Source of the DNA: Candidatus Lindowbacteria bacterium RIFCSPLOWO2_12_FULL_62_27
GTDB taxonomy: Bacteria; Lindowbacteria; 2-12-FULL-62-27
Assembly: GCA_001784175.1 (NCBI GenBank)
Contig: MFPR01000037.1
Coordinates: 87,959-123,643 of the forward strand
Direction of reading: 5' to 3'
DNA length: 35,685 bases
Numbering within the stretch: the first letter of the stretch is position 1; the number at the start of each line of letters is the position of its first letter. Of this stretch, positions 10,785-28,652 are shown piece by piece. The notes beneath the pieces are model-generated. The model saw only the letters and a program-made list of their open reading frames with translations, had not been told where the DNA came from and ran no database searches. A program made the position numbers and the translations under genes.

Positions 10785-10794
10785 CTGCTTTGAG

Positions 10795-10827
10795 AAAAAA
10801 ACAGTCCCGACGAGTTTGTCGGGACTG
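10795..10827 (-). terminator. Intrinsic terminator after the cold-shock gene
   Basis: Minus strand CAGTCCCGAC-aaactc-GTCGGGACTG followed by T7. Confidence 0.85.
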
Positions 10828-10859
10828 CGGTTGTTCGTTGGTGAAGATCAGCTTGAACC

Positions 10860-11069: not shown

Positions 11070-11370
11070 CTGCTCCACCTCCTTCTCAATGTTCAGCCTC
11101 AATCAGGAACGCCTTTCATTTTCCGCTTCTCACTGTTATCGGCTGACGCACTCGCGTGGAGAACACTTACCGGCACAGCTTACGGGACAATCCTGGCTTC
11201 CTCACCCGCGTCGATGTCCATGCATCTGGCGGGCCAAGGCATTATGAACCAACGCTCATATCACATTATAATCTTCCACCTGTCAATCTCAGCGCTCAAA
11301 TTTAATCGCGGCGTCGGCCTGCGGCCCGTCGATGGCGTCCCTCCCTGCCTGTTTGTCCGGAAATGTTGGA

Positions 11371-11444
11371 AGGCGGCGACCGGATTTGAACCGGTGAGTC
11401 GCGGTTTTGCAGACCGCTCCCTTGGGCCTCTTGGGTACGCCGCC
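11371..11444 (-). tRNA. tRNA-Cys(GCA)
   Basis: GGCGGCG/CGCCGCC acceptor, anticodon arm GCGGT-CTGCAAA-ACCGC, GGTTCAAATCC, U discriminator. Confidence 0.95.
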
Positions 11445-11474
11445 GAACACATGGATGTGTCCGAAGTTACATGA

Positions 11475-11909
11475 CTACCACCGAATGTTGATATAATTCT
11501 CCAGTTGCTCAATTACGAATTTCTGGTCCTCGATGATCGCCTTCACCAGGTCCCCGATCGAAACGAACCCGACGGGCTTGCCGCTTTCGAGGACCGGAAG
11601 ATGCCGGATCCGCTTGTCGGTCATGAGCGCCAGCGCCTCCGCAACCTTGATGTCGGGCTGAACGAAGAGAACGCGGTCCGTCATGATGTCCTTGACCGGC
11701 GTGTCCTTCGAGCTGCGGCCCTTCAGAATCACCTTCCGCGCGTAGTCCCGCTCGGACAGAATGCCCACCACCTCATCGCCCTTCATCACGAGGAGCGCGC
11801 CGACATTCTTCTGGGCCATGTAGTGCAGCGCGTCCAACACCGGCGCGTCCGGACCCACGACCCATACCTCCGGTCCCTTTTTGGCCAGAATATCGCGTAT
11901 CGTTTTCAT
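11475..11909 (-). CDS. CBS-domain pair protein
   Basis: NVGALLV, VGILSERDY, VKDIMT, RIRHLPV and VSIGDLVK motifs. Confidence 0.93.
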   Translation of the reverse strand: MKTIRDILAKKGPEVWVVGPDAPVLDALHYMAQKNVGALLVMKGDEVVGILSERDYARKVILKGRSSKDTPVKDIMTDRVLFVQPDIKVAEALALMTDKRIRHLPVLESGKPVGFVSIGDLVKAIIEDQKFVIEQLENYINIRW

Positions 11910-11935
11910 CGGCCCATGCCTTTCCTTGATAAAAA

Positions 11936-12008
11936 AGCCGAGGATCGGAATTGAACCGACGACCTACTCCTTACCATGGAGTTGCTCTACCGACTGAGCT
12001 ACCTCGGC
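11936..12008 (-). tRNA. tRNA-Thr(GGT)
   Basis: GCCGAGG acceptor, TAGCTCAGTCGGTAGAGC, ACTCC-ATGGTAA-GGAGT, GGTTCAATTCC; upstream TTGTTT-N17-TAATAT promoter-like motif. Confidence 0.95.
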
Positions 12009-12064: not shown

Positions 12065-14161
12065 TCATTCGGCGTTCACAGGCGCGCTCCTATTGCGCGT
12101 CTGTTTGGATCGGATTTTTTCGGCGCGGGACCTGTAATATTCGGCCGAGAGGTTGCCGGTTTTTCGGTAGAGTTTGGCGAGGTTTTCCAAAATGGCGAGC
12201 AAATCGGGATGCTCCGGTCCAAGGAGGGTTTCTTTAATCTCCAGCGCCCGGCGAATCAAGGGTTCGGCGTCGGCATACCGGCGCTGGCTGTAATAGACGG
12301 CGGACAGATTCACCAGCGTCGTCGCCAATTCACCGTCGGTTTTCCCCCGCGCCCCTTCCTGGATGGCCGCCAGGCGTTTGAACACCACCTCGGCATCCGG
12401 ATGGCGGCGCAGATTCAGGTACAAATCTCCCAAATTGGCCAGGACATTTTCCATCAGCGGATGATTCGAACCCAGTGATTTCTCTCTGATCGCCAATGCC
12501 TGCTTGTAAACGTCTTCGGCCTCTGCGGAGCGTCCCTGATGGGCGTACATCCATCCCAGATTACTGAGCGCCGAAGCGATCTCGACATACTCGGGGCCGT
12601 GGGCCTTCTCCCACATTCTCGCCGCCCGCTTGAACATGACTTCGGCTTGCACGTACTGTGTGCGATCCCGATGGATCACGCCGAGGTTGTTCAACCTGCG
12701 CGCGGTGTCCCGCTCGTGCCCCGGCGGCCAATGGGCCGACATCTCGACCAATCTTCCGTAGACGGCTTCCGCTTCCTTGTTTCTGCCCGGTTTGCTGTAG
12801 ATGACCTCCAAATTTTGCAGGATCATTAATATATCCGGATCATTCGGATCGGGCCTGCGGTCTTTCTCCTTGACCTCCAACGCGCGCCTGTACAGGATTT
12901 CCGCGTCGTCCTGCCGTCCCTGTTTCATATGGAGACTTGCCAGGTTCAAGAGACACGCGACCCGCCGGTCCGGCCGGCCCGGGAAGCGTTCCTGGATGGC
13001 CAGCGCCCGCTGGGAGAAGGACAACGCCCGGTCGAAACGATTCTGGTTCATGTAAAAGCCGGAGATGTCGAGAAGGAGCGGCGTGAGGGCCGGGCTGTCC
13101 GGACCGGACAGGCCCTCTGACATTTGCAAAGCTTCCGCGTAAAGCAACTCGGCGCGGCCCGGGTCCCGGGTGGTGTACAGTCCCGCCAGCGCGACCATGC
13201 TCTCCATCACCAAGGGGTGGGCGGGTCCGAGCGACTTCTTTCTGAGTTCCAGCGCCCGCGACAGATGTTGATGCGCGTCTGAATAGCGTTCCATTGAAAC
13301 ATCCGTTCGTCCAAGTCGATCGAGGGCGTCCGCGTCGTCCGTCGCGGCCGACGCGCGGGTGACTGTGTCCCCCGGCCTCTTTTTCCGTGTTTGCGGCGCG
13401 GGGACAGACTTGTCCGTGACAATCCACGTGTCCGACGTGAACTGCAAATCATACGACACGCTCGAATGGGCTTTGAGGACCAGTTGCAATCCCCTGTTTG
13501 CATGGTTGGGCGGATAAACGCCGTCCTCCAGGCGGAATATTCTTTCGTACGGGACACCGGTGTCAAAGATCGCGGCGATTTCATGTTCCCCCGTCCGCCT
13601 GTGGCGGATCGTGACCCGCCGGAGGGTCGCGACCGGATTCGATGGGATCCAGTACGAGTTCAGTTTTTGAAGCCACCCTGTATCATTCCTGTAAAAGAGA
13701 ACCTCGTTTGTGCCGTCGCCGTGCCGCAGAAATCGAATCACATAGCCCGTCCGGTCGCCCGTCCGCTTGTTGGCTCTGGGACCGTAGGGGAATGGGGTCA
13801 GCAAAAAGCCGCGGCCCGGGCCCGCCGCATAGCAGACAAATGCGCTGTTCGACACGTCCGCTCCGCCGCCCATGAAGTTCATCTCGATATCCCGCTCGTC
13901 CGGAATGGCGGATGTGGCCGGCAGGGCGCACTCGAGGCCCACGGGTTCGCTGTTGGGGGCGGTCGTGTAATGGAACACGATCCGGCCATTTTCGATTCGA
14001 TGGTTCGAGAAGTCGGACCGATAGAGGTCCTTGTTCAGCGGATGATCCGTGTCGAAATCTTCCCGGAAAATGACGCCCGCTCCCGCCCGGCTCGCGAAGA
14101 AAAGAATGCCGCATACAAGAACCAGGCAAGGGATGTGACGAAAGAGACCCAGTTGATGCAC
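12065..14161 (-). CDS. Exported protein with a beta-rich N-terminal domain and kinesin-light-chain-type TPR array
   Basis: Signal peptide ending AGA, then VIFREDFD; about 9-10 repeats of ~42 aa such as LNNLG..Y..QG.Y.EAE..Y.RAL.I.EK.LG..HP. Confidence 0.85.
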   Translation of the reverse strand: MHQLGLFRHIPCLVLVCGILFFASRAGAGVIFREDFDTDHPLNKDLYRSDFSNHRIENGRIVFHYTTAPNSEPVGLECALPATSAIPDERDIEMNFMGGGADVSNSAFVCYAAGPGRGFLLTPFPYGPRANKRTGDRTGYVIRFLRHGDGTNEVLFYRNDTGWLQKLNSYWIPSNPVATLRRVTIRHRRTGEHEIAAIFDTGVPYERIFRLEDGVYPPNHANRGLQLVLKAHSSVSYDLQFTSDTWIVTDKSVPAPQTRKKRPGDTVTRASAATDDADALDRLGRTDVSMERYSDAHQHLSRALELRKKSLGPAHPLVMESMVALAGLYTTRDPGRAELLYAEALQMSEGLSGPDSPALTPLLLDISGFYMNQNRFDRALSFSQRALAIQERFPGRPDRRVACLLNLASLHMKQGRQDDAEILYRRALEVKEKDRRPDPNDPDILMILQNLEVIYSKPGRNKEAEAVYGRLVEMSAHWPPGHERDTARRLNNLGVIHRDRTQYVQAEVMFKRAARMWEKAHGPEYVEIASALSNLGWMYAHQGRSAEAEDVYKQALAIREKSLGSNHPLMENVLANLGDLYLNLRRHPDAEVVFKRLAAIQEGARGKTDGELATTLVNLSAVYYSQRRYADAEPLIRRALEIKETLLGPEHPDLLAILENLAKLYRKTGNLSAEYYRSRAEKIRSKQTRNRSAPVNAE

Positions 14162-14233: not shown

Positions 14234-15148
14234 ATGAAGAAGCGCATTGTTTGCGCCGCATGTATATGGATTTTAGCGTGGTCCGTCGTGGTCGAGTCAG
14301 GACGGGTCCGGGCTGACGACGAAGGCCAGCTCCGGCGGGTCGAGGACAAGGCCAACCGCCCGAAGGAGACGTCGCCGGAAGAGGCGGCGCGGCAGGCCGC
14401 GGCCGAACGCAAGGAACTGGAACGGCAGCGGCGCCGGGAAGAGGAGCGGGAACGGTGGCGGCGCGCGCATCCGGGCGAGCGGACGCCGGAGGGGGTGGGG
14501 GGCGACGGGTCCGACTGGATCTGGAGCGACCTCGCCATGATCGGGCTGATCGCGCCTTTTGCCGGGCCTTATTATCTGCTGGACGACCGTTACGATGAGC
14601 CGGTAGGGTTCGAAGCCTATCCGTTCGCCGATGACGCGGAAGGGTGTACCCGCCGGGACGGCCGCGACTGGCTGATGCAGACCCATCTTTCGATCCAGAG
14701 CGTTTCCGGAAACATTCTGGCGACGCGCGCCGACGGGTCTCTGAATTTCTGGCAGCGGCTGGCCCTCGAGGGCGCGTACAGCCGGTATGAGGAGCGGCTG
14801 AAAAATCACACGGAGATTCTGCGCCTCCGCGAGGCGCTCGTGACGTTCATGTTCGCGCAAAACGAGTTTCTGGATTTTCGTGCCGGCGTCGGATCCCAAG
14901 CCATCGATGGCCGGAATTTGAACACGGGCGTCAAGTGGGTTTACCGGATCCGGTGGTTTCACCGGCCGTTTCAATTCAATCTTGACCTTGGCGTCACGAC
15001 GAATCTGGGGGCGTCGACGCTGTCCGAAATCTCACCGGGCGTGGGCTGGCACGTAGGCCGCTTCGAGTCGCGCCTGAGTTACCGGCGCCTCAAAATCTCC
15101 GGCGACCGGCTCGCCGGGCCTGAACTGTCGGTCCGGGTCTGGTTTTAG
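14234..15148 (+). CDS. Hypothetical exported protein, possible outer-membrane beta-barrel
   Basis: Signal peptide, R/E-rich coil, then alternating amphipathic strands ending in ELSVRVWF with terminal Phe. Confidence 0.6.
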   Translation: MKKRIVCAACIWILAWSVVVESGRVRADDEGQLRRVEDKANRPKETSPEEAARQAAAERKELERQRRREEERERWRRAHPGERTPEGVGGDGSDWIWSDLAMIGLIAPFAGPYYLLDDRYDEPVGFEAYPFADDAEGCTRRDGRDWLMQTHLSIQSVSGNILATRADGSLNFWQRLALEGAYSRYEERLKNHTEILRLREALVTFMFAQNEFLDFRAGVGSQAIDGRNLNTGVKWVYRIRWFHRPFQFNLDLGVTTNLGASTLSEISPGVGWHVGRFESRLSYRRLKISGDRLAGPELSVRVWF

Positions 15149-15155
15149 CGCAAGC

Positions 15156-18100
15156 CTACTCCAGATTCGACACGTGTCGCGTGTGCCAGACGCGATCGTC
15201 GTGTTTCCGCCGGGCGCCGTCGGGTGGCCGGGGAGGCGGATAGGCCGTCATGTTGTGATACGGCATGGGATCGACGGAATCCGGGAAGGCTGTATATAGG
15301 TCCATATCCTTGCAGTATCCGTCGGAATGCAGGACGAACGTGCGTGTCCAACCCGGCGGAATCGCCGGAAGGCCCGCCGCGTCAAAGGACAGAACGATTT
15401 CCTCGCCGCGCCCCATGATCACAAACCGGTCGTCCACGTCTTTCAGCAGGTCGCGCACGTCGCCGAACCGGGTGAATCGTCCTTCCATGTTTTTGAACGG
15501 CACGCCCTGATCGATTCTGTCATAATCGTACAACGTAGGGTCGTCGCCGTCGGGAGAATACTCGCGCGGATAGCCCAGATATCTGAGATCGGCGGAAACG
15601 GGCCGGAGAACGCGCCGCCGAATGGCTGCGGCGGGGGTTTCCGTCCCGACGAATATCTGGTCCCAGTAAATCTCCATGTTCGTGTGGATGCGCATCCGCG
15701 CGTCTGCGCGGAACGGAAGGGCTGTGATGTCGAACGTCATCATTCGCGGCAGGCCCGCGGGGAACCCCATATCGGCCACGGCCGTTTTCCAGCCGCCTTT
15801 CCCGTCCGGTATTTCGATCCTCGGCGGTGACATCGCAAGGCCCGCCTGATGGGCGGCGTAGTTGACATGCGAGTAGGTGTACTCGACCCATCCATGGAGA
15901 CAGAGCACCAGCGTGTCTGCTGGAGACAGGCGCCGCAGTTCATCGCCGAAATTCACTTCGATCCAGTGGTCGTGGGCGTATCCGACGAACCGGCTGTCTT
16001 TTGGAGGCTCGGCATAGCGGCGGTCAACGGAACGAATCCTGTCAAGGACATCCCCGCCGCCTGACGCTCGCGCAGAGACGGGAAAGATTCGCCGGGACAA
16101 CAGAATCGGCCGGCCGGTCGGCGCGGGTTCCACGCCGCCGAACCGTTCATCCGGGAAAATCTCAATGTTTTCCGGATGGTCGTAGGCGATCAAATAGAGC
16201 TGATCCATCCAAGTGACTTCTTCGAGAGGTTCTGCGACTCGCAGAAGATACCGGCCGTCCCGCGGGGCGATCATATCTCGCGGAATGAGCACCCGCTCCG
16301 TGGGATCAGGTGGGCCGTAGACGCCGGGAGACAGGAAGAATCCGACGCCGCCCACGCCGAGGAAATCGGTGACGAACGAAAATCGAGCGCCATCCCACGC
16401 GAAGAGAATCGGGCAGGACGAAGGTTTTCGATGGATCTTGACGATGCCCCACCGCTGGTTCGCCGGCACCTCCAGCTCGCTTTGAATGACCCCGTCCGGC
16501 CACGCGAGCCGCACGTAATCGGCCTTGACGCGCGCCCCCAGCCCGAAATGAACCTGAGGCGGCGGCGATCCGAGATAGCCGGCCGACTGCGTCACCTGGG
16601 CCGCTTGAATCGACCTGCCGGTTTTGATCTCGACTCCGAGCCCGGCCACGCCTGCATCCGGACAGCGCACATCGTCTTCCGAGGATTTCAACGGCACCAC
16701 CGTCAGCCAGTGCCCGTCCGGTTTGGTTTGCGCACGCCATATCTCAGGGCGCATGCCGGCGCGGGCCGTGACGATTTCGAGTACGCCGTCGCCGTTCAGA
16801 TCCAATGCGAGCGCTCCGCGCGCCGTGGGCGTCGCGCGGGTTGATCCCAATCGCGCCGGCGGCGCGAATTGGCCCATCCCCGCATTCATGAGAATGCGGT
16901 GGGCGTAACTTCTCTTCGAGCCGGCGTCGAGCAATACGATGTCCGCATCGCCATCGAGATCAAGATCAGCGGCCATGGCGCCTGCCGATCCGCCGAGTTC
17001 CGCCGCCCGTTCAGCAAACACCCTGTCTTCGACGAACCGTCCACGGTCCACATTCAAGAACAATCGCGGAGGCGCCGGGCCTCGGATCAAAAGGATGTCC
17101 AGCCGCCCGTTTTGATCGACGTCGGCTGTGACCGCGCCCATGGACGGCGCGGCGTCGGACAAATCAGGGAAACGGTCTGTCGCATCGGTGTACTGGCCGA
17201 CGCGATCGTTCAGATAAATGCGGTTGGGGGAGCCGGAATTGAGGAGGCAAATATCCAGGTCCCGATCGTCGTCCATATCGAAAAACAAAACGCCCACCGT
17301 CACCGCCTGCCCGCCCTCGAGGCGCGCCTCGGGGGCAACGTCCGTGAATGTGCCGTCGCCGTTGTTTCTCCAGAGCGTGTTGGGAGCGCCGGCAGACAAT
17401 CCGGCCGCGGAACGCGCCGCGGCGTTCGCCACGTACAAATCAAGATCCCCGTCATGGTCGGCGTCGGCCCATGCGGCGCCGACACTGAGGGTCTGTCCGC
17501 CTGCCGTCCGGGTTTGCGCGGTCACGTCCGTGAATCGGCCGGCGTCGGAGACGCCGGCACTTGGGGCGTCGGAGACGCTGACCCGGCCGGCGTCGTTTCG
17601 GTACAACCGGTTGGGGCCATCACAGGTCAGATAGAGGTCGGGATCTCCGTCGCCGTCATAATCTCCGAAAAATGCGCCCACGGCGTTCCTGCCGTCGATT
17701 CCGCTGTTCGGAACAATGGAGAAACGCCCATTTTGAAGACGGTACAACGCGCCTACATGATCGGGGCCCGCGCCGGGAATGTACACCGACAACTCTCCGC
17801 GCCCCTCCAGATCGGATGCTGCGAGACCTGGCCCGAAGGCGGGTGCGTCCATTCGGCTGGATTCCGCAGGCATGCCGGGGACGGCGCCGTTATCAGCATT
17901 CAGTTGCGCATCGGCGGAGATGTCGGCGTAGTCGGGCGGCTCATCCCGTCCCTGCGATGGTTCCGGCGAAAAAGCGCGAAGTATGTCGGCGTACCGGCCC
18001 ATTTCTCCATATTTCATTCCCGCAGCGACGCCGGCCCCGGCCGTCTTGAGCGCCCGAAATCTCTGCATAAGCTCACGGGCCCTCTCGATTTCTCCGGCTT

Positions 18101-18713
18101 CACGGAGAAGGGTGACGAGGCGGTAGCAGGCGGATTCGTGGTGCGGCGCCTGGTCGAGAGTTTGCTCAAAGTGCCTCCGCGCCGCCGCCGGATCGCGGTC
18201 GGTCATGAGGACGCCCATCTGATAGTGCGCGTCCGCGTCGCCGGAATCCACCGCCAGCACTGCTTCAAACTCCCGCGCGGCCTCGCGCGCCCGGTTCAGA
18301 TGCTTGAAGAGCATGCCGAGAGCGAACCGGGCGTGGGCGTCGGAGGGGTCGATGCCGATGAGCCGGGACAATTCCTGTTCGGCCCTGGCGTAACCGGATT
18401 CTGTCTGGGTGTTGAGAAGCGCGACGCCAAGATTCAATCGCCCGGCACTCCAGTCAGGGGCGATTCGTACGACCTCCTCAAAGGCCTTCACCGCCTCCTG
18501 CGGGCGGTACTGGTCCATCAGCGCGACGCCGCGATTAAAGGGCGAGAAGATGCTGTCGATTTGGGCGGGCGGAATGCCCACAGTGGATGGATCGAGTCTC
18601 CCGGCCGGTTCAGGAGGATGCTCATGTTCGTACGAGGACGGCTCTCCACAGCCCGCCATGGCGATCCCAAAGATCAAGACGATCATCGCCGAAGTTTCAT
18701 TCGACCTGCTCAA
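15156..18713 (-). CDS. Lipoprotein with TPR repeats, FG-GAP/CRTAC1 propeller, ASPIC/UnbV domain and an uncharacterised ~420-aa C-terminal domain
   Basis: IAMAGC lipobox; TPRs; GDYDGDGDPDLY, ADADHDGDLDLY, DLNGDG repeats; GY......VHFGLG....ADYVRLAWPDG; start TTG 18713 (GGAGG SD, TTGA overlap) or ATG 18686. Confidence 0.85.
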   Translation of the reverse strand: MSRSNETSAMIVLIFGIAMAGCGEPSSYEHEHPPEPAGRLDPSTVGIPPAQIDSIFSPFNRGVALMDQYRPQEAVKAFEEVVRIAPDWSAGRLNLGVALLNTQTESGYARAEQELSRLIGIDPSDAHARFALGMLFKHLNRAREAAREFEAVLAVDSGDADAHYQMGVLMTDRDPAAARRHFEQTLDQAPHHESACYRLVTLLREAGEIERARELMQRFRALKTAGAGVAAGMKYGEMGRYADILRAFSPEPSQGRDEPPDYADISADAQLNADNGAVPGMPAESSRMDAPAFGPGLAASDLEGRGELSVYIPGAGPDHVGALYRLQNGRFSIVPNSGIDGRNAVGAFFGDYDGDGDPDLYLTCDGPNRLYRNDAGRVSVSDAPSAGVSDAGRFTDVTAQTRTAGGQTLSVGAAWADADHDGDLDLYVANAAARSAAGLSAGAPNTLWRNNGDGTFTDVAPEARLEGGQAVTVGVLFFDMDDDRDLDICLLNSGSPNRIYLNDRVGQYTDATDRFPDLSDAAPSMGAVTADVDQNGRLDILLIRGPAPPRLFLNVDRGRFVEDRVFAERAAELGGSAGAMAADLDLDGDADIVLLDAGSKRSYAHRILMNAGMGQFAPPARLGSTRATPTARGALALDLNGDGVLEIVTARAGMRPEIWRAQTKPDGHWLTVVPLKSSEDDVRCPDAGVAGLGVEIKTGRSIQAAQVTQSAGYLGSPPPQVHFGLGARVKADYVRLAWPDGVIQSELEVPANQRWGIVKIHRKPSSCPILFAWDGARFSFVTDFLGVGGVGFFLSPGVYGPPDPTERVLIPRDMIAPRDGRYLLRVAEPLEEVTWMDQLYLIAYDHPENIEIFPDERFGGVEPAPTGRPILLSRRIFPVSARASGGGDVLDRIRSVDRRYAEPPKDSRFVGYAHDHWIEVNFGDELRRLSPADTLVLCLHGWVEYTYSHVNYAAHQAGLAMSPPRIEIPDGKGGWKTAVADMGFPAGLPRMMTFDITALPFRADARMRIHTNMEIYWDQIFVGTETPAAAIRRRVLRPVSADLRYLGYPREYSPDGDDPTLYDYDRIDQGVPFKNMEGRFTRFGDVRDLLKDVDDRFVIMGRGEEIVLSFDAAGLPAIPPGWTRTFVLHSDGYCKDMDLYTAFPDSVDPMPYHNMTAYPPPRPPDGARRKHDDRVWHTRHVSNLE
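17536..17595. repeat. In-frame degenerate tandem repeat with 24-bp period
   Basis: GGCGTCGGAGACGC at 17541 and 17565; CGGCCGGCGTCG at 17536 and 17584. Confidence 0.7.
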
Positions 18714-20389
18714 TCCGGTTCCTCCATCACCACCAGCGTGCCGGCCGCCGCCGGAGCCGAAGAGCTTTTGCCCGACGGCCAGATCACGTCGATCGAGGCC
18801 GCGGATTCGTCGGCCCGAAGACCCACATGGACGGTGGGATCGCTCGCGCTCAGATACGAAGCGGCGGTTCTGACTTCGTTGTGAATGGCGCGCGTATCGG
18901 TCCGGACGACCACTTTCGCGCCGATGCCCTGCGTGTTGGGCGCGCGGCCATGCAGTCGGATCTTGAGCCATCGCGCGCCGGCGGGGGTTTCATTACGCAA
19001 AAGTTCCGCCCACGATCCGGAATTGGAGGCCAGGATGTCGATGTCGCCGTCGTTATCATAATCTCCGAAGGCCGCCCCGCGGCCGACGCGTTTGCGCACG
19101 AAACATTCTCCGCAGCGGTCGGCGGCGTTTTCGAAGGTCCCGCGTCCGGTGCCGACAAACATCATCTTTTGCTGCGGATAGGTGATCTCCTGCGAGAATC
19201 CCTCTATGTCATCCACCACATGCCCGTTGGCCACAAAGCAATCCAGGTGGCCGTCGTGATTGAAATCGGCGAATCGCGCGGCCCAGCCCACGTGCCGGTA
19301 GGTGTCCTCATCGAGGCCCAGGGCGCGGGTCAGATCCGCGAAGAACCCGTTGCCCCGGTTCACGTAGAGATTGTTGAATTCAAACACCATGTTCGTGACG
19401 AACAGGTCCTGAAGGCCGTCGCCGTTCACGTCGACGACGTCGACCCCCATCGCCGCCGTGACGACGCCGTCCGGATCGTATGCCACTCCGGCCTCAACGC
19501 CGATTTCCACGAACATGCCTCCCTCATTCCGATACAGGAAGTTGGGCGTGGCGTCGTTCGCGACAAACACGTCCTGGTCACCGTCGTTGTCGAAGTCCAG
19601 CGCCACGGCCGTCAGGCCCTTGCCGTTCGCGGAGAGTCCCGCGGACGCGGACACATCGGTGAACGTCCCATCGCCGTTGTTGCGGTACAGAACATCCTCC
19701 TCGCCCTCAAAATCGCGCGGGCCGGGGAAGGATCGGAATCCGTATTTTTTGGAGAGCGTTGAGACATGGACGTCCTTGCGGTTGACGAGAAATTTGAGGT
19801 AATTCGAGACATAGAGATCGAGGTCGAGGTCCCCGTCGTAATCGAAGAAGACCGCGCCGGCGCTCCACCGCGGGCAACCTACGCCCGCCCGGTCGGTCAC
19901 GTCCTCAAACGTCCCGTCGCCGCGGTTGCGGTAGAGGGTATTGCGGCCGAAGTTCGTGATGTAGAGATCGACGAATTCGTCGGCGTCGTAGTCGGCCGTC
20001 GCAACGCCCTGCCCGTAGCTGGCCGCCGTGATCCCCGCCGTTTCCGTGACGTTGCGGAAGGTCCCGTTTCGCTCGTTGTGAAACAGGGCGTGAGTCGCGG
20101 CATTCCTGCGGTCCATCAACCCATGTTTGTCGAGTTTCGCGCCGTTGACCAGGAATGCGTCGAGCCGGCCATCGTTGTCGTAATCGAAAAAGGCGCACCC
20201 TGAACCCGTGGTCATAAGGACATTCTCGTTTTGTTCCGCCCCGAAGGTATGCCGGAACACGATCCCGGCCGATCGCGCGATGTCCGTGAATTTCGGCGGC
20301 GGGTCGGCGGCGGCCGTCGCCGCACAAACCGCCGTGATGGCGACCGTCATCCACAGCCATCGAAACCCCGCGATCCTCATTCCTTTCAC
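18710..20389 (-). CDS. CRTAC1-family protein (FG-GAP/VCBS repeats plus ASPIC/UnbV), Sec signal peptide
   Basis: Seven D.D.DG..D repeats, YRN.GDGTF.DV, GRGAAFGDYDNDGDID, GIGAKV, SYLS......HVGL, WPSG. Confidence 0.92.
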   Translation of the reverse strand: MKGMRIAGFRWLWMTVAITAVCAATAAADPPPKFTDIARSAGIVFRHTFGAEQNENVLMTTGSGCAFFDYDNDGRLDAFLVNGAKLDKHGLMDRRNAATHALFHNERNGTFRNVTETAGITAASYGQGVATADYDADEFVDLYITNFGRNTLYRNRGDGTFEDVTDRAGVGCPRWSAGAVFFDYDGDLDLDLYVSNYLKFLVNRKDVHVSTLSKKYGFRSFPGPRDFEGEEDVLYRNNGDGTFTDVSASAGLSANGKGLTAVALDFDNDGDQDVFVANDATPNFLYRNEGGMFVEIGVEAGVAYDPDGVVTAAMGVDVVDVNGDGLQDLFVTNMVFEFNNLYVNRGNGFFADLTRALGLDEDTYRHVGWAARFADFNHDGHLDCFVANGHVVDDIEGFSQEITYPQQKMMFVGTGRGTFENAADRCGECFVRKRVGRGAAFGDYDNDGDIDILASNSGSWAELLRNETPAGARWLKIRLHGRAPNTQGIGAKVVVRTDTRAIHNEVRTAASYLSASDPTVHVGLRADESAASIDVIWPSGKSSSAPAAAGTLVVMEEPD

Positions 20390-21558
20390 CGCCCGTAATA
20401 GACGAACGTGAGATACACCGCGTCGCTCTTCGGCGCCATGACGCGGTTCGCCTCCTCGCGATAGGCCAAAAAAACGCTGACGGCGTTGGTGAACGAGTAA
20501 CTGAATTGATAGAGGGCGGCGGTGTCGTCGGAGTTGTGAGTGGAGGTGTCCCTTCGAACCGATTCAACCTGCCATGAGAGACCGGCATTTTGAAACCGCG
20601 GGATGATCCACTCCAGCGTCGCGCGCACGCCGAGCACGTTCGATCTTTGCCCGCCGGTGACCGCGACATACTGCGCGTCGTCGCCGAATCCGTCCTGTCC
20701 GCAGGCGACTTGGCCGCTCAGGATCAGATAATCTCCGGACCGGCGGAAAAGGTCATACGCGACGCGCCAGCGCGAGATGGACGCAGCGCCGAACACGGAC
20801 GGCCCCATGATGGCCGGCAAATCGCCGACCAGGATCGACAGGCCGTTTTGAATGTCCCAGTAGGTCGGCGCGCCCAGCCGGGCTGTGAGCAGGAAGCTCG
20901 TGCGTTCGGAAGCCGTCGACAGGCGCGGCGAGTGCAGCCCTTCGCCCAGACCCAATGTCGCCGCCGCCTCCCAGTCCAATTTTCCGAGCGGGCCTTTGAT
21001 ATTCAGCCCCCAGTCCCATTTCAGCCCGAGGTCGGCGGCCTCGAGCGGCAGAAGAAACCGGTGCCGGGGCGCCGTCATCGGATTCATGCCGTACGGAATG
21101 ACGAACTGTCCGAGCCTCAGGCTCAGCCGCTGCGAGCCGCCCGGATTCCATCGGATCCAGAAATCCTGCGGCGCGAACTTCACGGCGTTCATGCCCCGGT
21201 TGTCCTGCATCCGGTCGTACACGATGCGCGGGTGAAGTGTCATGGCCTCCAGCGGCATCCAGCCGCCGAATATCCGGCGATTGAGGAGTGACTCGGTTGA
21301 GAACGTCCTGACGTAGTCGAGCCCGATGGAATTACCCGGCGGTCGAGGCGACAGCTCAACGTAGTCTTTCGACCGGTCGCCCGGCGGCAGGCCTGTCGCG
21401 CCGTCGAGCGGGAACACGGCTGAGGACACGAATTCAAGGTACAAAAACGATCGACGCACTCCCTCCTCATCCGCCGGAACCGCAGCGCAGGCCGCATGGA
21501 CGACCGCCGCGATCAGAAGAACGGTTGTCACAGGCCGTGCGTGCCGGACTTTCGTCAT
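20386..21558 (-). CDS. Hypothetical exported protein, putative outer-membrane porin-like beta-barrel
   Basis: Signal peptide; LSLRLGQF..PYG segment typical of porin-like proteins; many amphipathic strands; C-terminal VYLTFVYY. Confidence 0.6.
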   Translation of the reverse strand: MTKVRHARPVTTVLLIAAVVHAACAAVPADEEGVRRSFLYLEFVSSAVFPLDGATGLPPGDRSKDYVELSPRPPGNSIGLDYVRTFSTESLLNRRIFGGWMPLEAMTLHPRIVYDRMQDNRGMNAVKFAPQDFWIRWNPGGSQRLSLRLGQFVIPYGMNPMTAPRHRFLLPLEAADLGLKWDWGLNIKGPLGKLDWEAAATLGLGEGLHSPRLSTASERTSFLLTARLGAPTYWDIQNGLSILVGDLPAIMGPSVFGAASISRWRVAYDLFRRSGDYLILSGQVACGQDGFGDDAQYVAVTGGQRSNVLGVRATLEWIIPRFQNAGLSWQVESVRRDTSTHNSDDTAALYQFSYSFTNAVSVFLAYREEANRVMAPKSDAVYLTFVYYGR

Positions 21559-22394
21559 GGCGCGACTCGGACGGGTTGGCGCTCGCGGATGGAATGCAGA
21601 AACCAGTCGAGCCGCCGGTATTCGTCGTCCACCTTGATTTTTGTGACACCGGTTTCCTCCCAGCTCGATATCCCGGACCAGTACGGCGTCAGGAGACTCA
21701 AGCGGCCGGCGCCTTCGGCCGGAGGCGCGGACTCTCTTCCCGCTTGGATGGCGCGCTTAAGGCGGATTGCAGCCGCAACCGCGTCTCCTTCCAACCAGAA
21801 CAGGTAGCCGGCGAGGTAAAATGCGCCGCCGCATTTGGAATTCGATGCGGCCGCCGCCTCAAGATAACGCCGCGCGCGGGATATGTTTCCGCGCAAAAGG
21901 GCGATCTCCCCGATCCTGAGCACGGCGCCGGACTCCTCCTTGTTGATATCGAGCGCCTTCTCGAATTCCCTTTCCGCCTCCGCCGGCTCGAAGGGCGCGC
22001 CCGCAACGCCGCATGAGAAGAGCGCGCCGAGCTGGGCATGCGCCCTGGCGCTGGACGGATTGATTTCCGCCAGCCGGCGCCATGTCTCCGCCGCCTCGGC
22101 GAATCGCCCGAGTTCGAACAGAACATTGCCGAGGTTATACAGGGAATCTTCGTGCCCGGTGTCCAGCCCCAGCGCGGCGTGGTACGCAGCGTCGGCGCCG
22201 GGCCAGTCGCCTTGCAGCCGAAACCGGGTGGCCTGATCATACAGCTTCCAAAACTGCAGAACTTCCGCCTTTCGGTCCGGCGACCACGCCGGGGAAGGAA
22301 CGGGATCAACTGCGGATGGCCGCATTTTGAGAATGGTCAGAATGATGAATCCCGTGGCAAACCCCAGAGCGAGAAACCCCGCCGCGCGCTTCAC
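21555..22394 (-). CDS. Membrane-anchored TPR protein
   Basis: GTG 22394 (GTGA overlap) gives MKRAAGFLALGFATGFIILTIL anchor; TPRs such as SLYNLGNVLFELGRFAEAAETW. Confidence 0.82.
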   Translation of the reverse strand: MKRAAGFLALGFATGFIILTILKMRPSAVDPVPSPAWSPDRKAEVLQFWKLYDQATRFRLQGDWPGADAAYHAALGLDTGHEDSLYNLGNVLFELGRFAEAAETWRRLAEINPSSARAHAQLGALFSCGVAGAPFEPAEAEREFEKALDINKEESGAVLRIGEIALLRGNISRARRYLEAAAASNSKCGGAFYLAGYLFWLEGDAVAAAIRLKRAIQAGRESAPPAEGAGRLSLLTPYWSGISSWEETGVTKIKVDDEYRRLDWFLHSIRERQPVRVAP

Positions 22395-24250
22395 GGCCCG
22401 TCCATGCCAATCGCCGGCGCTCGGCTGCCCGGCTCCGTGATCGTCACGATCTGATCGGCGCTGACCCATTCCAGCGTCTGCGTCCGTCCGCTTGGCCATG
22501 CGACGTCGATCGCGTCGACGCGGTCCGCCGAACCCAGCCCGACCAGCACCTCTCTCGCGGCATTCTGAGAGCAGTACGAGGATCCGGCGCCAGATTCGCG
22601 GAGGTAGATATGCGTTCCCGCGCGGAACCGCAATTTCGCGCCGACGCCGTCCCTGTTTCCCTCCGTTCCTCGCAGACGGACTTTGATCCAATGATTGCGG
22701 TCCCCCCCATCATTTCGGAGAAGAATCGGGGCGTCACCGTGGACAACGATGAAGGCGTCCGGGTCGCCGTCATTGTCATAATCTCCGATCGCCAGCCCCC
22801 GGCCCACGCGCCGCGCCCGGAAGATTTCACCCGATACGGAGCCCACCTCATAGTAACCTCTTCCGGCCCCGGCATTCCAGAACAGCAGATTATTCATCGG
22901 CGCAAGCAGGGTGGAGTCGTCTTCGCGCGGAAAGGTGCTGCCATTCACGACCATGAGATCGAGCAGGGCGTCGTTGTCGTAGTCAAGAAACGCCGTGCCC
23001 CAGCCGATGTAATCCAGCGCGATCTGTCCAAGGCCATACTGGTCGGCAACATCCACGAATGCCAGCCCGCGCGATTTGCCCTCCATGCGCAAGTCCGCGT
23101 AATCGGAGGACATGTTGTTGTAGAGCGCGTTTTCCTGGGCAAGCCAGTGGGTGATGAAGATGTCCTGATCTCCGTCTACATCCCAGTCTCCCACCGCCAG
23201 ACCCATCGCGCCGCGGTAGTCGGCCACCCAGGCTCTGTGGCTGATGTCCTCGAAGGTTCCATCACCCCGGTTGCGGTACATCGCGTTGTCGGAAACATCA
23301 TTCGCGACGTAAAGATCAGTCCGGCCGTCATTGTCGAAATCCGCCCAGGACGCCGAAAGACTTCGCCCGGCGGGATTGTCAACGCCGGCGTCCCGGGCCA
23401 CTTCCGTGAATGTGCCGTCGCCGTTGTTGTGGAACAGAAGATTTCGCTCCGGCTTGTAGGTGGAAGGATTGAGAGACGCGGGAAGCACGGCGTCATATTG
23501 CCGGCTCTGCGTGTAGAGGTGCGCCTGCTCGAAACGGTACTGCACGTATCCACAGACGTACAGATCGAGCAGGCCGTCACTGTCATAGTCACCCCACGAC
23601 GCGCCGGTCCAGAAGCCCTCGAAACGGCCGATGCCCGAACGATTCGAGGCGTCGGCGAAGGCGCCGTCACCGTTGTTGTGAAAGAGGAAGGTGTGGCCGT
23701 AGTTTGTCACAACAAGATCGAGCAGACCGTCATTGTCGTAATCGCCCCATGCCGCTCCCTGGCCGACGCTTCGGACATCCAGTCCCGCCCGGAGCGTGAC
23801 ATCCGCGAACGTGCCGTCGCCGTTGTTCCGGTAGAGCGCGTGCCGAGCCGGCGATCGGGCGAACTCTTCCGGCGTCATGGTCAGGCTTCCGGCTTCGTTC
23901 ACGATAAAAAGATCGATCCAGCCGTCGTTGTCAAAATCGCCCCATGCCGCGCCCGATCCCATGTCTTCCGGGAGCTGGGTTGACCGGGTTCCGTGAAAAT
24001 GCCGAAACCGGATGCCCGCCGATTCGGTCACATCCAGGAAGGACACGCGCGGATAATTCGCCGGGGGATCGCGCGAAAGGGAATCGATGAGGCCCTCCAT
24101 TTTTTCGCCCGGCACATACGGTTTCGGCGCAGGTCCCCGCCATATCGCGACGGCGCTCGCGGCGATCGCCAGTCCGCCCAGTACCGCCGTCCGCATCAGA
24201 AGCCGCCGGCGCGGCGTGGGTTCTCCGGGACGCAAGGTCTTCCGAGTCAA
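22391..24250 (-). CDS. CRTAC1-family protein (FG-GAP repeats plus ASPIC/UnbV) with N-terminal membrane anchor or signal
   Basis: GAAWGDFDNDG..D repeated; GRGLAIGDYDNDGDPD; NRDGVGAK; SYCSQ......GLG; WPSG; start TTG 24250 inferred from TTGA overlap. Confidence 0.9.
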   Translation of the reverse strand: MTRKTLRPGEPTPRRRLLMRTAVLGGLAIAASAVAIWRGPAPKPYVPGEKMEGLIDSLSRDPPANYPRVSFLDVTESAGIRFRHFHGTRSTQLPEDMGSGAAWGDFDNDGWIDLFIVNEAGSLTMTPEEFARSPARHALYRNNGDGTFADVTLRAGLDVRSVGQGAAWGDYDNDGLLDLVVTNYGHTFLFHNNGDGAFADASNRSGIGRFEGFWTGASWGDYDSDGLLDLYVCGYVQYRFEQAHLYTQSRQYDAVLPASLNPSTYKPERNLLFHNNGDGTFTEVARDAGVDNPAGRSLSASWADFDNDGRTDLYVANDVSDNAMYRNRGDGTFEDISHRAWVADYRGAMGLAVGDWDVDGDQDIFITHWLAQENALYNNMSSDYADLRMEGKSRGLAFVDVADQYGLGQIALDYIGWGTAFLDYDNDALLDLMVVNGSTFPREDDSTLLAPMNNLLFWNAGAGRGYYEVGSVSGEIFRARRVGRGLAIGDYDNDGDPDAFIVVHGDAPILLRNDGGDRNHWIKVRLRGTEGNRDGVGAKLRFRAGTHIYLRESGAGSSYCSQNAAREVLVGLGSADRVDAIDVAWPSGRTQTLEWVSADQIVTITEPGSRAPAIGMDGP

Positions 24251-26280
24251 CGCCTCACGATCAGTATCGTTTTTGTGTCCTCCGCCATCGAACTGACGGT
24301 CGCCGTCAGTCCGGACGTTTCGCCCATGAGAAAATTGAGGAGGAACTGGTCGATCTTGCGGTAGAGCAGTCGGGCGTTCACGTGCATGCGGCCCGGAGAA
24401 TCGGGGGGCGAAGGAAAGCTGTACCCGGCGGCGTCGGCAAATCCGGGGAAGACCGACCGCCTGAACCGCACACCGACCATCTCCCACAGATTGTGCCGGT
24501 CGATCAGGTTTCCGTACTGGTCCACCGCCTCGGCCTTGAAGATGAACGAGCCGGGTTTGATGAAATGCCGGGTGTCCAGATCGCCCGATTTGTACACGAT
24601 CCCGCCGCTGTCGTCCGTCACGGTCAGCTCAACCCACGACTGGATGATGTCGAGCGGGCCGGTCGGAAAATCGTGGCCGACCTTGTTGTTGGTGATCACC
24701 ACCCGGACCGGTGTCTGCTCGCCGGGGGCGACGCGGTCGGGAGCAACCAATTCGATGGGAGTGGCGGGTCCCTCGCGCCATTTATGCGCGATTTCGTTCA
24801 CCGGGATTTCCCCGCGCAGCCAGCGGACCGTGAGGTCGTGGTGCTCGTCGGCGCCCGGGAGGGCAAGGAGTTTCGGCATGAACTGGTTGGCGCCGAGGAA
24901 ACGGTGACTTCGGTGTTTGCCGTCCGACGCCGAGCGGTTGTAGTCGAGATCATCGCCGGCGGCCGGCTCGCGCGAGCCGTCCACCAGGGGCATGTGACAC
25001 TCGCGACATTCGATGGTGCGCGCGGCGTCTTTCCCGTGGTTCCACCGGCTCTTGCGCCAGTTGTCGTACTGGTTCTGGAGCTGGACCCATCCGACGTTGT
25101 TGATTTCAGCGTCAATGAACTGCTTGTGGCATGCTGCGCAGAATTCGGGGCTCTTGAACAGCCGGTGACTCAGGCTCTCCGTGTGCTGCCGCGGATAGGC
25201 GCGAATCAAGAAGTCCCGCAGGAAGCGCGACGCCGTCCCCTGCTTCAATTCATACATATACCGCGGCGGCTGAACGATCACGTAATTCGCGTTGCCCTTG
25301 ATGTCCGTTTTCCGGATGGAATGGCAGACCAGACAGGAGACGCCCTCCTGGTAGCCGGCAAGATTGGTCAGATTTTCCGAAAAGACGTTTTTCGCGCCGG
25401 AAAACAGCGAGATCGGATCGTGACACCCGCCGCAGTAGCGCGTCGATTCCGGACTGTTCTGTTTTCCCATGACAGCTTGCACCGCCTGAAACGCCGGGTC
25501 CATCGCCGAATATCGGTGGGCGCTCGGCTGCCACTCGCGTACGATCTGGTCGTGACAGCGTGCCGTGCCGCACGAGAGAGACCCGGAGATCGAGCGTGCG
25601 TCGAATGCGCCGCTGTCGGAGGTCGTCGCGAGGCTCGGGCCGAACGGGCGGTCCCTGCCGTACTTGTAATTGTAATCCGCCGGAAACTCGTTCTTGAACT
25701 TCACTTCATCGTAACCATAGGTCCATAGCCCGACCAGACATACGCCGGCGGTTGTCACCAGCACAACGCCCTGCCCGAACCGCTTTTGCGATTCACCGAC
25801 CGGCGTCCCATGTCCGGCGCCCCGTGCCTTCCGGTCCCTCGTGATAATCAGCGTGACGTGGGGAACGATGGCGGCGATCAGGGCGAACGTGCTGACCAGG
25901 TGAACGCGGTCCCAGAAGTGGCTGATCCGCGTGAGAAAGAGCGCCTGAATCATCACCACGATACCCGACGCGCCGCAGACGGCCGCGGATGCCAGGGAAA
26001 AGTATCCCGTAAGCTTGAAATGACTCATCAGGGCGGGCTGGTACACCCGCCAGTGCCGGATCTGGTACACGACGTAAAGAACCGCAAACCCGACGCTGGC
26101 GATCGTGTGGACCAGTACGGAGACTTGGGCGACGAAACTGAAGGGCAGAAAGGTGATGGCGAGTCCCGTCAGAGTCTCGAGGAGCAGCAGTCCCGATACG
26201 AGGATCGCAAGAGGCGAATCCCATTCGGCCGCGCGGTCGACGGTTGAAACATACCTTTCATCGTTCATGACCGCTTCCAT
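24247..26280 (-). CDS. Membrane-bound multiheme c-type cytochrome (c554-like) with His-bearing N-terminal transmembrane domain
   Basis: Five hydrophobic helices; CGTARCH, CGGCH, CLVCH, CAACH, CRECH; SHRFLGAN and GHDFPTG motifs. Confidence 0.88.
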   Translation of the reverse strand: MEAVMNDERYVSTVDRAAEWDSPLAILVSGLLLLETLTGLAITFLPFSFVAQVSVLVHTIASVGFAVLYVVYQIRHWRVYQPALMSHFKLTGYFSLASAAVCGASGIVVMIQALFLTRISHFWDRVHLVSTFALIAAIVPHVTLIITRDRKARGAGHGTPVGESQKRFGQGVVLVTTAGVCLVGLWTYGYDEVKFKNEFPADYNYKYGRDRPFGPSLATTSDSGAFDARSISGSLSCGTARCHDQIVREWQPSAHRYSAMDPAFQAVQAVMGKQNSPESTRYCGGCHDPISLFSGAKNVFSENLTNLAGYQEGVSCLVCHSIRKTDIKGNANYVIVQPPRYMYELKQGTASRFLRDFLIRAYPRQHTESLSHRLFKSPEFCAACHKQFIDAEINNVGWVQLQNQYDNWRKSRWNHGKDAARTIECRECHMPLVDGSREPAAGDDLDYNRSASDGKHRSHRFLGANQFMPKLLALPGADEHHDLTVRWLRGEIPVNEIAHKWREGPATPIELVAPDRVAPGEQTPVRVVITNNKVGHDFPTGPLDIIQSWVELTVTDDSGGIVYKSGDLDTRHFIKPGSFIFKAEAVDQYGNLIDRHNLWEMVGVRFRRSVFPGFADAAGYSFPSPPDSPGRMHVNARLLYRKIDQFLLNFLMGETSGLTATVSSMAEDTKTILIVRR

Positions 26281-26283: not shown

Positions 26284-26298
26284 TGACAGATGTTGTCA
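26284..26298. promoter_or_regulatory. Candidate operator palindrome next to the cytochrome start
   Basis: TGACA-gatgt-TGTCA, 3 nt upstream of ATG 26280. Confidence 0.3.
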
Positions 26299-26394: not shown

Positions 26395-27654
26395 CTAGGT
26401 TAACTCCATCACTTCCCGCCGCTCTGCCTGCGCCATCCGCCGCGCGCGCGCCAGATCGGCGGGGGTGTCGATGCCGATCGAATCATGGGGCGTGACGGCG
26501 ATGGCGATCGATTGTCCGTTTTCGAGGATGCGCAACTGCTCGAGTTTTTCCGCCTGCTCCAACGGCGTCTCGCGCCACTTGGAAAATTCGACCAAAAACG
26601 ACCGGCGAAAGACATAAAGGCCGATGTGTTTGAACCATTTCGCCGCCTTCGACCTCTGCGTGTCGCGGTAGAATGGGACCGGGCTTCTCGAGAAATAGAT
26701 CGCGCGGCCCTTTGAGATCGCCACTTTCGCGACGTTCGGATTTTGCAGATCTTTGACGGGGCACCTCGCCGCCAGCGTCGAGACAGGGCAAGCGGAGGAG
26801 AGGAGCGTTCGGACGGCGAGGCGAATGTTGAATGAGGGCTGAAACGGCTCGTCTCCCTGGAGGTTCACGACCACCGGATACGCCGGAAAATACTGCGCCG
26901 TTTCCGCGCACCGGTCGGACCCGCTCTTGCACGTCCTGGACGTCATGACCGCCGTCGCGCCGAATCCATGGGCCGCCTTGAGGATCCGCCGGTCGTCCGT
27001 GGCCACCACCACCTTCCAGTCCGGCAGGGCCGCCTGGCAGGCTCTTTCGTAGACATGTTGAACGATCGGTTTGCCGTCCAGGGTCGCCAGAGCCTTGCCG
27101 GGGAATCGCGTCGATCCGTATCGGGCCGGAATGACGATGAGCGTTGGCTGCGGCAGGCGGGCTCGCATGGGATAAACCTGCGGGACGGCCCGGACCTTCT
27201 CAATGATGCTCGAGGTGCTTCGCCCCGGTGTGAGCTGCACGCGGACGACTTTCCCGCCATAGGACCGGGCCACATCGGCCCCCACGATGTCTTTTTCGCT
27301 CCAGTCCGCGCCTTTGACGAGGACGTCCGGCCGGATGGCCTGAATGAGTTTGAGCGGTGTGTCCTCCGAAAAGGGAATGATGTAATCGATCATCCGCAGC
27401 GCCGACAGGATCGCCGCGCGATCCGCCAGCGTCGCCACCGGCCGCGCCGGTCCCTTGAGGCGGCGGACGCTGTCATCGGAGTTCAGGCCGAGCACGAGAA
27501 TGTCTCCGCACAGTTTGGCCTTGTTGAGATACTCGACGTGTCCCCGGTGGAGGATGTCGAAACAGCCGTTGGTGAACACGACTTTCTTTCCGGCGCGCTC
27601 GGACTTCAGCCGCCGGGCCAGTTGCGGCAGGTAGTAGAATATTCTCGCGGACAT
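26395..27654 (-). CDS. kdsB: Fusion of heptose-1-phosphate adenylyltransferase (HldC/RfaE2) and CMP-Kdo synthetase (KdsB)
   Basis: VFTNGCFDILHRGH, GLNSDDSV.RLKG..RP, LVKGADW, STS.II; then IPARYGSTRFPGK, VATDD, SGSDR, VNLQGDEP, YFSR, KHIGLY, EKLEQLR.LE, IDTP.DL, all in one ORF. Confidence 0.9.
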   Translation of the reverse strand: MSARIFYYLPQLARRLKSERAGKKVVFTNGCFDILHRGHVEYLNKAKLCGDILVLGLNSDDSVRRLKGPARPVATLADRAAILSALRMIDYIIPFSEDTPLKLIQAIRPDVLVKGADWSEKDIVGADVARSYGGKVVRVQLTPGRSTSSIIEKVRAVPQVYPMRARLPQPTLIVIPARYGSTRFPGKALATLDGKPIVQHVYERACQAALPDWKVVVATDDRRILKAAHGFGATAVMTSRTCKSGSDRCAETAQYFPAYPVVVNLQGDEPFQPSFNIRLAVRTLLSSACPVSTLAARCPVKDLQNPNVAKVAISKGRAIYFSRSPVPFYRDTQRSKAAKWFKHIGLYVFRRSFLVEFSKWRETPLEQAEKLEQLRILENGQSIAIAVTPHDSIGIDTPADLARARRMAQAERREVMELT

Positions 27655-27677
27655 TCAGCGGGCGTGGGGCGGGAGGG

Positions 27678-28652
27678 TCAAACCGCCTCGAGGATTTCCT
27701 TCGGCGACGCCACCGCCGTGCCGATTTTCCCGACCACGATGCCGGCCGCGAGGTTCGCGATCTCGAGCCCTGTTCGGAGATCCAGCCCGGCGGCCAGCGC
27801 GAGACCGCAGACGGCGGTGACCGTGTCGCCGGCGCCGGTCACGTCGAACACCTCGCGCGCGCGCGTCTGAATGTGCGTCACGCGGTTGTTCGGCTCAAAA
27901 AGACTCATGCCCTGCTCGCCGCGGGTGATGAGAAGCGCGTGGAGGTTGAGTTTCTTTCGGATGGTTTTTCCGGCCGACTCGATCTCGGCCTGGGTCCGGA
28001 GTTTCCGGCCCAGCGATTCGCCGGCCTCCTTGGTGTTGGGCGTGAGGAGCGTGACCTTCTGATAGGACCAGAAATTCTGGAGCTTGGGATCGGCGACGAC
28101 CGGCAGGTTCAGCCGGCCTGCGTGGCGGATCAATCTATTGAGAACAGGCTGGCAAATGGCGCCCTTGCCGTAATCCGAAATCACGATCGCGTCGGTGCTC
28201 TTCATCGCCTCCACCAGGCTCCGGCACATCGACTCGATCGTTTCCGCTTCCGGCCGGCCCCGCACTTCGCGGTCAATCCGCACCATCTGCTGGCTGCCGG
28301 CGATGACCCGCGTCTTGCGGATCGTCGGCCGATCGAGGGACATGGAGGCGCGAAGAACAATTCCGATCGACTCGCACTGCTTTCGGACTTGATCCGCAAA
28401 GCCATCCTCTCCGAGAACTCCGATCGCGGTGGGCCGGCCGGCCAGCGCGGCGATGTTGGCCGCCACGTTCAGCGCGCCGCCCAGCCGGTACGACTCCTCG
28501 CGAACTTCAACCACGGGCACCGGCGCTTCCGGCGATATGCGCTCCACGCCGCCCCACACGTAATGGTCGAGAATGAAATCGCCGACCACCAGCACGCGGC
28601 GGTTCTGAAACCGGGCCAGAATTTTTGAAACTGCAGTGCGTGTCAATTTCAT
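27678..28652 (-). CDS. rfaE1: D-glycero-beta-D-manno-heptose-7-phosphate kinase (HldA)
   Basis: VVGD.ILD.Y.WG...RISPEAPVPVV, GGA.NVA.N, SDYGKG, TPN..EA, TRGEQGM, DVTGAGDTV. Confidence 0.93.
   Translation of the reverse strand: MKLTRTAVSKILARFQNRRVLVVGDFILDHYVWGGVERISPEAPVPVVEVREESYRLGGALNVAANIAALAGRPTAIGVLGEDGFADQVRKQCESIGIVLRASMSLDRPTIRKTRVIAGSQQMVRIDREVRGRPEAETIESMCRSLVEAMKSTDAIVISDYGKGAICQPVLNRLIRHAGRLNLPVVADPKLQNFWSYQKVTLLTPNTKEAGESLGRKLRTQAEIESAGKTIRKKLNLHALLITRGEQGMSLFEPNNRVTHIQTRAREVFDVTGAGDTVTAVCGLALAAGLDLRTGLEIANLAAGIVVGKIGTAVASPKEILEAV

Follow-up and report, generated by a model that had tools for sequence, protein, structure and literature searches.

Six genes of Candidatus Lindowbacteria bacterium RIFCSPLOWO2_12_FULL_62_27 form a mosaic of two separable units, a widespread core and a rarer porin-propeller pair. 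They were analysed within a stretch of 35,685 nucleotides (nt) of contig MFPR01000037.1 (hereafter the window), whose positions 15156-26280 are filled by six minus-strand open reading frames, named A to F. The core, A-B-C, encodes a b/c cytochrome, a CRTAC1/ASPIC-UnbV propeller and a TPR protein; the pair, D-E, encodes an outer-membrane porin and a second propeller. D-E is accessory and largely dependent on A, and A is not in need of D. What is new in this system is the pair together with its dependence on the cytochrome, the combination of a pentahaem enzyme with a small porin and a quinol link being of a known kind. The reading that we prefer, giving it slightly less than an even chance, is that A-B-C constitutes a quinol-linked periplasmic redox enzyme fed by the optional, propeller-capped porin D-E, with F as a scaffold or a second enzyme. 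The genes are as follows:

A, 24247-26280, minus strand: inner-membrane b/c cytochrome of 677 amino acids (aa); Pfam c554-like
B, 22391-24250, minus strand: membrane-anchored CRTAC1/ASPIC-UnbV propeller, constant partner gene of A; Pfam FG-GAP_3 and UnbV_ASPIC
C, 21555-22394, minus strand: anchored TPR protein; Pfam TPR
D, 20386-21558, minus strand: predicted 16-strand outer-membrane porin (modelled barrel), distantly OprO/P-like, of an unnamed family
E, 18710-20389, minus strand: soluble periplasmic CRTAC1/UnbV propeller, putative cognate partner of D; Pfam FG-GAP_3 and UnbV_ASPIC
F, 15156-18713, minus strand: lipoprotein with TPRs, a CRTAC1/UnbV propeller and a conserved C-terminal domain of about 420 aa; Pfam FG-GAP_3, UnbV_ASPIC and TPR

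A widespread core and an accessory pair

The neighbourhood of A was examined in the best 80 of 533 confirmed A loci from GTDB genomes. B follows A in all 76 loci with at least 300 nt downstream, which upholds the link between the cytochrome and CRTAC1 genes made in the preliminary description of this DNA, and C lies near A in 63 of the 64 loci with at least 3.2 kb. A B-C fusion occurs in 22 of the 80 loci, and an F-like gene is present near A in 26. The search with A gave 3460 matches among 8000 scored candidates, the best 120 being 58-68% identical, self-match aside. The A-B-C core is 55-68% identical across many phyla, mostly of uncultured bacteria.

D was found in one of the 80 A loci and in none of the 43 with at least 9 kb downstream. 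Among 50 A-carrying genomes, taken from those of the 80 loci, four contain D, with two more distant matches in addition, and it is absent from 46. This scarcity among A loci and A genomes identifies D as accessory. It also disposes of the fixed six-gene complex first proposed: within the six-gene neighbourhood, the A-B-C core and the D-E pair are each conserved, their union is not.

The D-E pair was defined from 32 loci with a D match, from which we removed three with at most 122 nt downstream and a distant 24% match lacking E (L111; loci are cited by L numbers and genomes by G numbers). E follows D in 26 of the 28 retained loci, a count that includes the near-duplicates L045/L085 and L090/L091. 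The search with E yielded about 85 close relatives before the score falls. Circumstantially, 23 of the 35 long D contigs are exactly as long as some E contig.

The dependence of D on A emerges from genomes. Taking the first 200 genomes of each of two phyla, with the centre genomes left out and the nesting of the samples inferred, D occurs in 5 of 34 A-positive and in 0 of 366 A-negative genomes; by phylum, in 2/18 and 3/16 A-positive against 0/182 and 0/184 A-negative genomes. The pooled Fisher test (p = 3e-6) overstates the association because the genomes are related. At this level, the suggested co-occurrence of cytochrome and barrel is recovered. In a third phylum, outside the pooled table, one of 200 genomes has D and one of 150 has A, and they are not the same genome. 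Conversely, six of seven genomes with a strong D match, chosen regardless of A, carry a full-length A-family gene; none was found in G374, whose D is distant. Three loci bring the units together: in L045 the groups A-B-C and D-E-F stand back to back, in L083 the order is D-E-A'-B'-nitrilase-F and in L118 D-E-A'-B'-F, where A' is a 37-40% paralogue of A. Neither A nor D was found in three genomes of the same family (81-91% complete).

The porin, the cytochrome and their propellers

D is modelled as a 16-strand barrel with an inward constriction loop (predicted local distance difference test, pLDDT, 89; predicted template-modelling score, pTM, 0.84), in agreement with the barrel initially assigned to 20386-21558 and with the class of 16-strand general and OprO/P porins. 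Its best fold matches are tied: chitoporin (Z 22.7, root-mean-square deviation, rmsd, 3.8, 301 residues aligned), Omp-Pst1 (Z 22.5) and OprP (Z 22.3). Overall, general porins and OprP score Z 20-23, and MtrB (6R2Q_B) ranks 50th with Z 10.4. D has no Pfam match, including Porin_O_P (PF07396), and D and its relatives gave NCBIfam matches in 0 of 36 sequences. Among 60 distant relatives, three match PF07396 weakly, one of them over the cut-off, and the Atlas neighbours of D are mostly Porin_O_P clusters resembling phosphate-selective porins. The family is small, with 100 clusters and 30 representatives at E up to 1e-30.

The modelled D-E complex scored 0.79, against 0.00 for the best control; 116 of 157 solved complexes reach the mark used for this score, as do 2 of 215 mismatched pairs, and the mark is only roughly valid with the present alignments. 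The model runs share at least 89% of their contacts, with partner pLDDT of at least 90. As sequence searching found no solved relative of E other than murine CRTAC1 (PDB 9ETN), recall of a similar complex by the model is unlikely. In the model, the interface on D consists of 47 residues, 44 of them at the periplasmic ends of strands and three on the constriction loop, the periplasmic side being assigned by the rule that porin termini are periplasmic. E is predicted to dock through loops 208-226 and 393-405. Loop 208-217 is long in all 20 D-linked sequences of the alignment and short or absent in eight others. Interface conservation is modestly above average (0.75 versus 0.70 in D, 0.82 versus 0.78 in E). 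The model supports binding of E to D, by which E would cap the periplasmic mouth of the porin from inside.

A comprises five hydrophobic helices and five haem-c motifs, a first CX4CH and then four CxxCH, all invariant in 50 of 50 sequences. Its layout, a four-helix bundle, a fifth helix, a periplasmic pentahaem c domain and an immunoglobulin-like (Ig-like) C-terminus, places it with the PHC/c552 family (for the name PHC, see PMC11976967), in which five haem-c motifs are followed by an Ig-like beta-sandwich. The top match of its periplasmic part, by sequence as well as by fold, is the Thermochromatium tepidum pentahaem c552 (5ZE8; Z 12.5, rmsd 4.4, 241 aligned). The transmembrane part matches the hydrogenase cytochrome b 4GD3 (Z 11.0, rmsd 3.1, 128 aligned) and FdnI (1KQG_C, Z 9.4), both below the bar set for helical bundles, a suggestive fold likeness to dihaem cytochrome b anchors of the HyaC/FdnI type. 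H58, H76, H127 and H141 are invariant in the 50 sequences and probably bind two b haems. No CxxCH motif is present in B to F, hence the operon encodes no other haem protein.

B, E and F all carry FG-GAP repeats and an UnbV_ASPIC domain over the Pfam cut-off, with six, five and four strict DxDxDG motifs, respectively; Pfam and PDB sequence matches make them members of the CRTAC1/ASPIC-UnbV family, which includes murine CRTAC1 and the enediyne protein E4. The family is abundant, 8000 of 8000 scored candidates having matched. In a quick tree of 67 sequences, from which B orthologues past the first 18 were dropped, the propellers fall into distinct clades, B-type, E-type and F-type (99-100 in the Shimodaira-Hasegawa-like approximate likelihood-ratio test), and each clade goes with its own partner gene. 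B differs in sequence from E at the equivalent docking-loop positions, which suggests, by inference from sequence, that B may dock on A the way E is modelled to dock on D. The C-terminal domain of F gave no Pfam family in 27 members (one match at E 0.035) and no PDB match (best E 0.14), and its Atlas cluster is unnamed.

The localisation of the products was judged by eye and from hydropathy. A basic stretch and then a hydrophobic anchor open both B and C; the N-termini of D and E resemble signal peptides, and that of F has the lipobox MAGC; among orthologues, inspected by eye, B keeps its basic stretch and anchor, E its signal-peptide-like start and F its lipobox. A 4-nt NTGA stop/start overlap is possible at every junction from A to F, with alternative ATG starts 9 nt (E) and 27 nt (F) downstream. 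Reading frames, overlaps and N-termini thus agree with the six co-oriented genes with export or anchor signals that had been described, and the distribution of the parts over inner membrane, periplasm and outer membrane was, on this basis, right. The list of parts itself, a multihaem cytochrome, three CRTAC1/UnbV propellers and TPRs, is borne out by Pfam and haem motifs.

In the literature searched, which excluded subscription papers and bioRxiv supplements, we found no paper on the A-F module, no assigned role for bacterial CRTAC1/UnbV proteins and no porin-capping role or b/c-cytochrome partner for them. CRTAC1 genes are placed between hydrazine-synthase-like (HZS-like) haem subunits in PMC12758564, and ASPIC/UnbV paralogues are merely listed in PMC3174227.

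In Geobacter, pentahaem ExtKL is encoded with the porin ExtI and a cytochrome b; ExtI weakly resembles phosphate-selective porins, is implicated in selenite uptake and has the amide/urea porin FmdC as its closest characterised porin (PMC5877670). ExtHIJKL-S resembles the present operon in gathering a pentahaem c domain with an Ig-like C-terminus, a phosphate-selective-like porin and a b-type cytochrome in one cluster and, if our preferred reading holds, in serving a periplasmic enzyme and not a wire. Here, unlike there, b cytochrome and pentahaem domain are joined in a single protein, and the partners are CRTAC1 propellers and TPRs; additional multihaem proteins and Rieske proteins are missing. 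The best-studied relative of A, the polysulfide/selenite reductase MccSep/ExtKL, carries out polysulfide reduction at haem 2 with the help of a distal Cys and a Sec (selenocysteine) (bioRxiv 10.1101/2025.11.18.688581), a catalytic pair without counterpart here. We rejected A as a member of MccSep/ExtKL: the ten haem-motif cysteines are the only ones conserved in the 50 sequences, so that MccSep chemistry is not transferable to A, and NF040886 scores 23 bits against a cut-off of 250. PtdA, encoded with the porin PtdB, forms a pentahaem-porin pair of unknown function (bioRxiv 10.1101/2023.11.21.568154) and is like the present system in this pairing; as described, c552 and PtdA have neither a fused membrane b domain nor propeller partners, unlike A.

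Genomic surroundings

Several genes recur at the loci of relatives. A formamidase-like cytoplasmic nitrilase, 80-90% identical between distant genomes, is inserted directly before F or behind E (L001:15024-16031, L008, L083, L090 and L096). Together with the FmdC likeness of ExtI, this neighbour may point to a small amide as substrate. A RaSEA-like radical SAM gene adjoins A-B-C or D in nine loci (L035, L047, L050, L051, L052, L057, L069, L077 and L097), usually with an AsnB-like gene (seven loci) and another CRTAC1 gene. An RnfD/UnbU-like membrane protein and a CRTAC1 protein are encoded beside A-B-C in L046, L055, L057, L060 and L070, a pair that we take to resemble enediyne E4/E5; a flavin adenine dinucleotide (FAD) halogenase-like gene sometimes accompanies it (three loci). 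No close orthologue of the nitrilase or of the RaSEA-, AsnB-, RnfD- or halogenase-like neighbours was found in the present genome. Cys-bearing Rrf2 regulators, not present here, occur in 11 of the 80 A loci and in three D loci, which is consistent with redox or iron control.

Other arrangements involve larger cytochromes or paralogues. In L115:1-13511, a distant D-like/E-like pair lies directly behind cytochromes of 9, 16, 9 and 18 haems and a cytochrome b. Upstream of its D-E-A'-B'-F cluster, L118:10618-18000 encodes another pentahaem c554-like protein as well as a large HZS-alpha-like one. L019, L026 and L065 carry, in tandem with A-B-C, a paralogous cytochrome-TPR fusion of about 1000 aa, a CRTAC1 gene of its own clade and an F-like gene.

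In the window, the operon is preceded on the same strand by genes for lipopolysaccharide precursors (26395-28652, minus strand), a fused cytidylyltransferase-like/KdsB-like gene and a PfkB kinase gene, which end 114 nt before A. A palindrome, TGACA-N5-TGTCA, stands at 26284-26298, directly before the start of A. It has two copies in the genome and is not conserved: its exact form occurs in 0 of 73 upstream regions of homologues, with one other match to the pattern. Beyond F, after a gap of 7 nt, a convergent gene (14234-15148, plus strand) encodes an exported protein, charged over an N-terminal stretch and rich in beta structure at its C-terminus, without Pfam or NCBIfam match. The gene at 12065-14161 (minus strand) encodes another exported protein, in which an N-terminal domain without assignment is fused to a long TPR array. 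A class A beta-lactamase-family gene lies at 34005-35087 (plus strand). The Rfam scan of the window found only four transfer RNA genes, at 10699-12008 and 35148-35221, all outside the operon, and nothing in the promoter and terminator scan exceeds shuffled sequences. The GC content at third codon positions (GC3) of A to F, 0.73-0.79, is inside the range of the neighbouring genes (0.73-0.84) and gives no sign of recent transfer. Elsewhere in the genome (G000), contig C30 has near 138120 (minus strand) an open frame with 42 CxxCH motifs, near other multihaem genes.

Possible roles of the two units

The preferred reading, a quinol-linked enzyme with an optional porin, builds on the genes, the folds, the coupling within A-B-C and within D-E and the dependence of D on A, all from the analysis, and on the modelled D-E binding. 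We infer haem b binding, quinol turnover, A-B binding, an active site, a substrate and a possible contact between the units. Two cognate pairs, each formed around a docking propeller of the same CRTAC1/UnbV type, would contribute to a single periplasmic redox pathway. The inner-membrane cytochrome A would use two b haems to exchange electrons with the quinone pool and five c haems to carry them onward. B, anchored beside A, would dock by variable top-face loops and complete or gate the active site, which would most probably lie at haem 2, where catalysis takes place in the relative MccSep; C would act as a TPR adaptor. In the outer membrane, D would be a small-solute porin with its mouth capped by E, a unit that may admit, select or hand on the substrate, and F may be an outer-membrane-side lipoprotein scaffold or a second enzyme. 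The accessory porin indicates that a substrate or product of A-B-C may cross the outer membrane as a small solute. The likeliest chemistry would be periplasmic and would reduce (or oxidise) some small soluble compound of inorganic or C-N type.

Several observations weigh against this reading, beginning with the scarcity of D in A loci and A-carrying genomes and the restriction of conserved cysteines in A to the haem motifs. No catalytic residue was identified in any propeller, and the haem domain of A is modelled poorly, with low confidence around the haems. L084 and L086 have D without E, G683 has D-E without A, and an A-family gene is found in three and an F orthologue in six of the 16 D loci that extend 6 kb or more to one side. 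The co-occurrence is overstated, the genomes being related and mostly incomplete metagenome-assembled genomes, and the units may simply mark CRTAC1-rich lifestyles.

We consider rather unlikely an alternative in which CRTAC1/UnbV propellers are non-catalytic docking or assembly partners, E plugs or stabilises the porin, and A-B-C and D-E are separate, sharing a regulon or lifestyle and no common substrate path. The diversity of propeller partners argues for it (cytochrome A, porin D, the RnfD-like protein and the HZS-like subunits of PMC12758564), as do the separation of D-E from A in 13 of the 16 long D loci and the clade-specific loops that form the modelled D-E interface. It accounts less well for the near confinement of D to A-carrying genomes and for the gathering of D-E, A-B and F in at least two further independent arrangements, with two different A paralogues.

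Two other readings appear improbable to us. The first takes bacterial CRTAC1/UnbV propellers for a docking module of general use, in which the top-face loops of every clade would cap a single membrane partner: E under the porin, B on the cytochrome and the TPR lipoprotein F would join one envelope-spanning substrate-channelling redox machine, a propeller completing the haem site in trans. The second is a periplasmic biosynthetic or tailoring cluster, with E4-like propellers, redox power supplied by A, C-N enzymes building a metabolite or an envelope modification, and export through D-E. Enediyne E4 (UnbV) reportedly takes part in oxidative enediyne chemistry; the literature searched gave no text on what E4 does. 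The tailoring reading draws on the label "enediyne biosynthesis protein E4" given to some E relatives by the Joint Genome Institute (JGI) and on the recurring nitrilase (five loci), RaSEA-like (nine), AsnB-like (seven), RnfD/UnbU-like with CRTAC1 (five) and halogenase-like (three) genes. Each of these neighbours is found in a minority of loci, several from related genomes; none is in the window, nor was a close orthologue found in the genome.

The preliminary description had compared the operon with MtrCAB, in which cytochrome and barrel genes likewise share one operon, and a conduit for extracellular electron transfer could further invoke the distant D-E pair behind the multihaem cluster of L115 and other multihaem proteins of the genome acting in trans. 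MtrB-type barrels have 26 strands. D, with 16 strands and a constriction loop, differs from them in size and fold class and scores far higher with general porins and OprP than with MtrB; MtrCAB has decahaem periplasmic and surface cytochromes, which the operon lacks, no CxxCH motif occurring in B to F; the pore is modelled above a haem-free propeller; and D is missing from most A genomes. On the porin type, the absent decahaem partner and the modelled propeller, the comparison is weak, the MtrCAB-type conduit was rejected for D, and we regard electron transfer of this kind as very improbable.

Bacterial CRTAC1/UnbV proteins are very common and have no assigned role in the literature searched, and it is for them that the D-E pair matters. 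The model of a porin capped on its periplasmic side by a calcium propeller would offer a concrete two-protein test with a residue-level interface. A-B-C, for its part, is a redox module found across many phyla of mostly uncultured bacteria.

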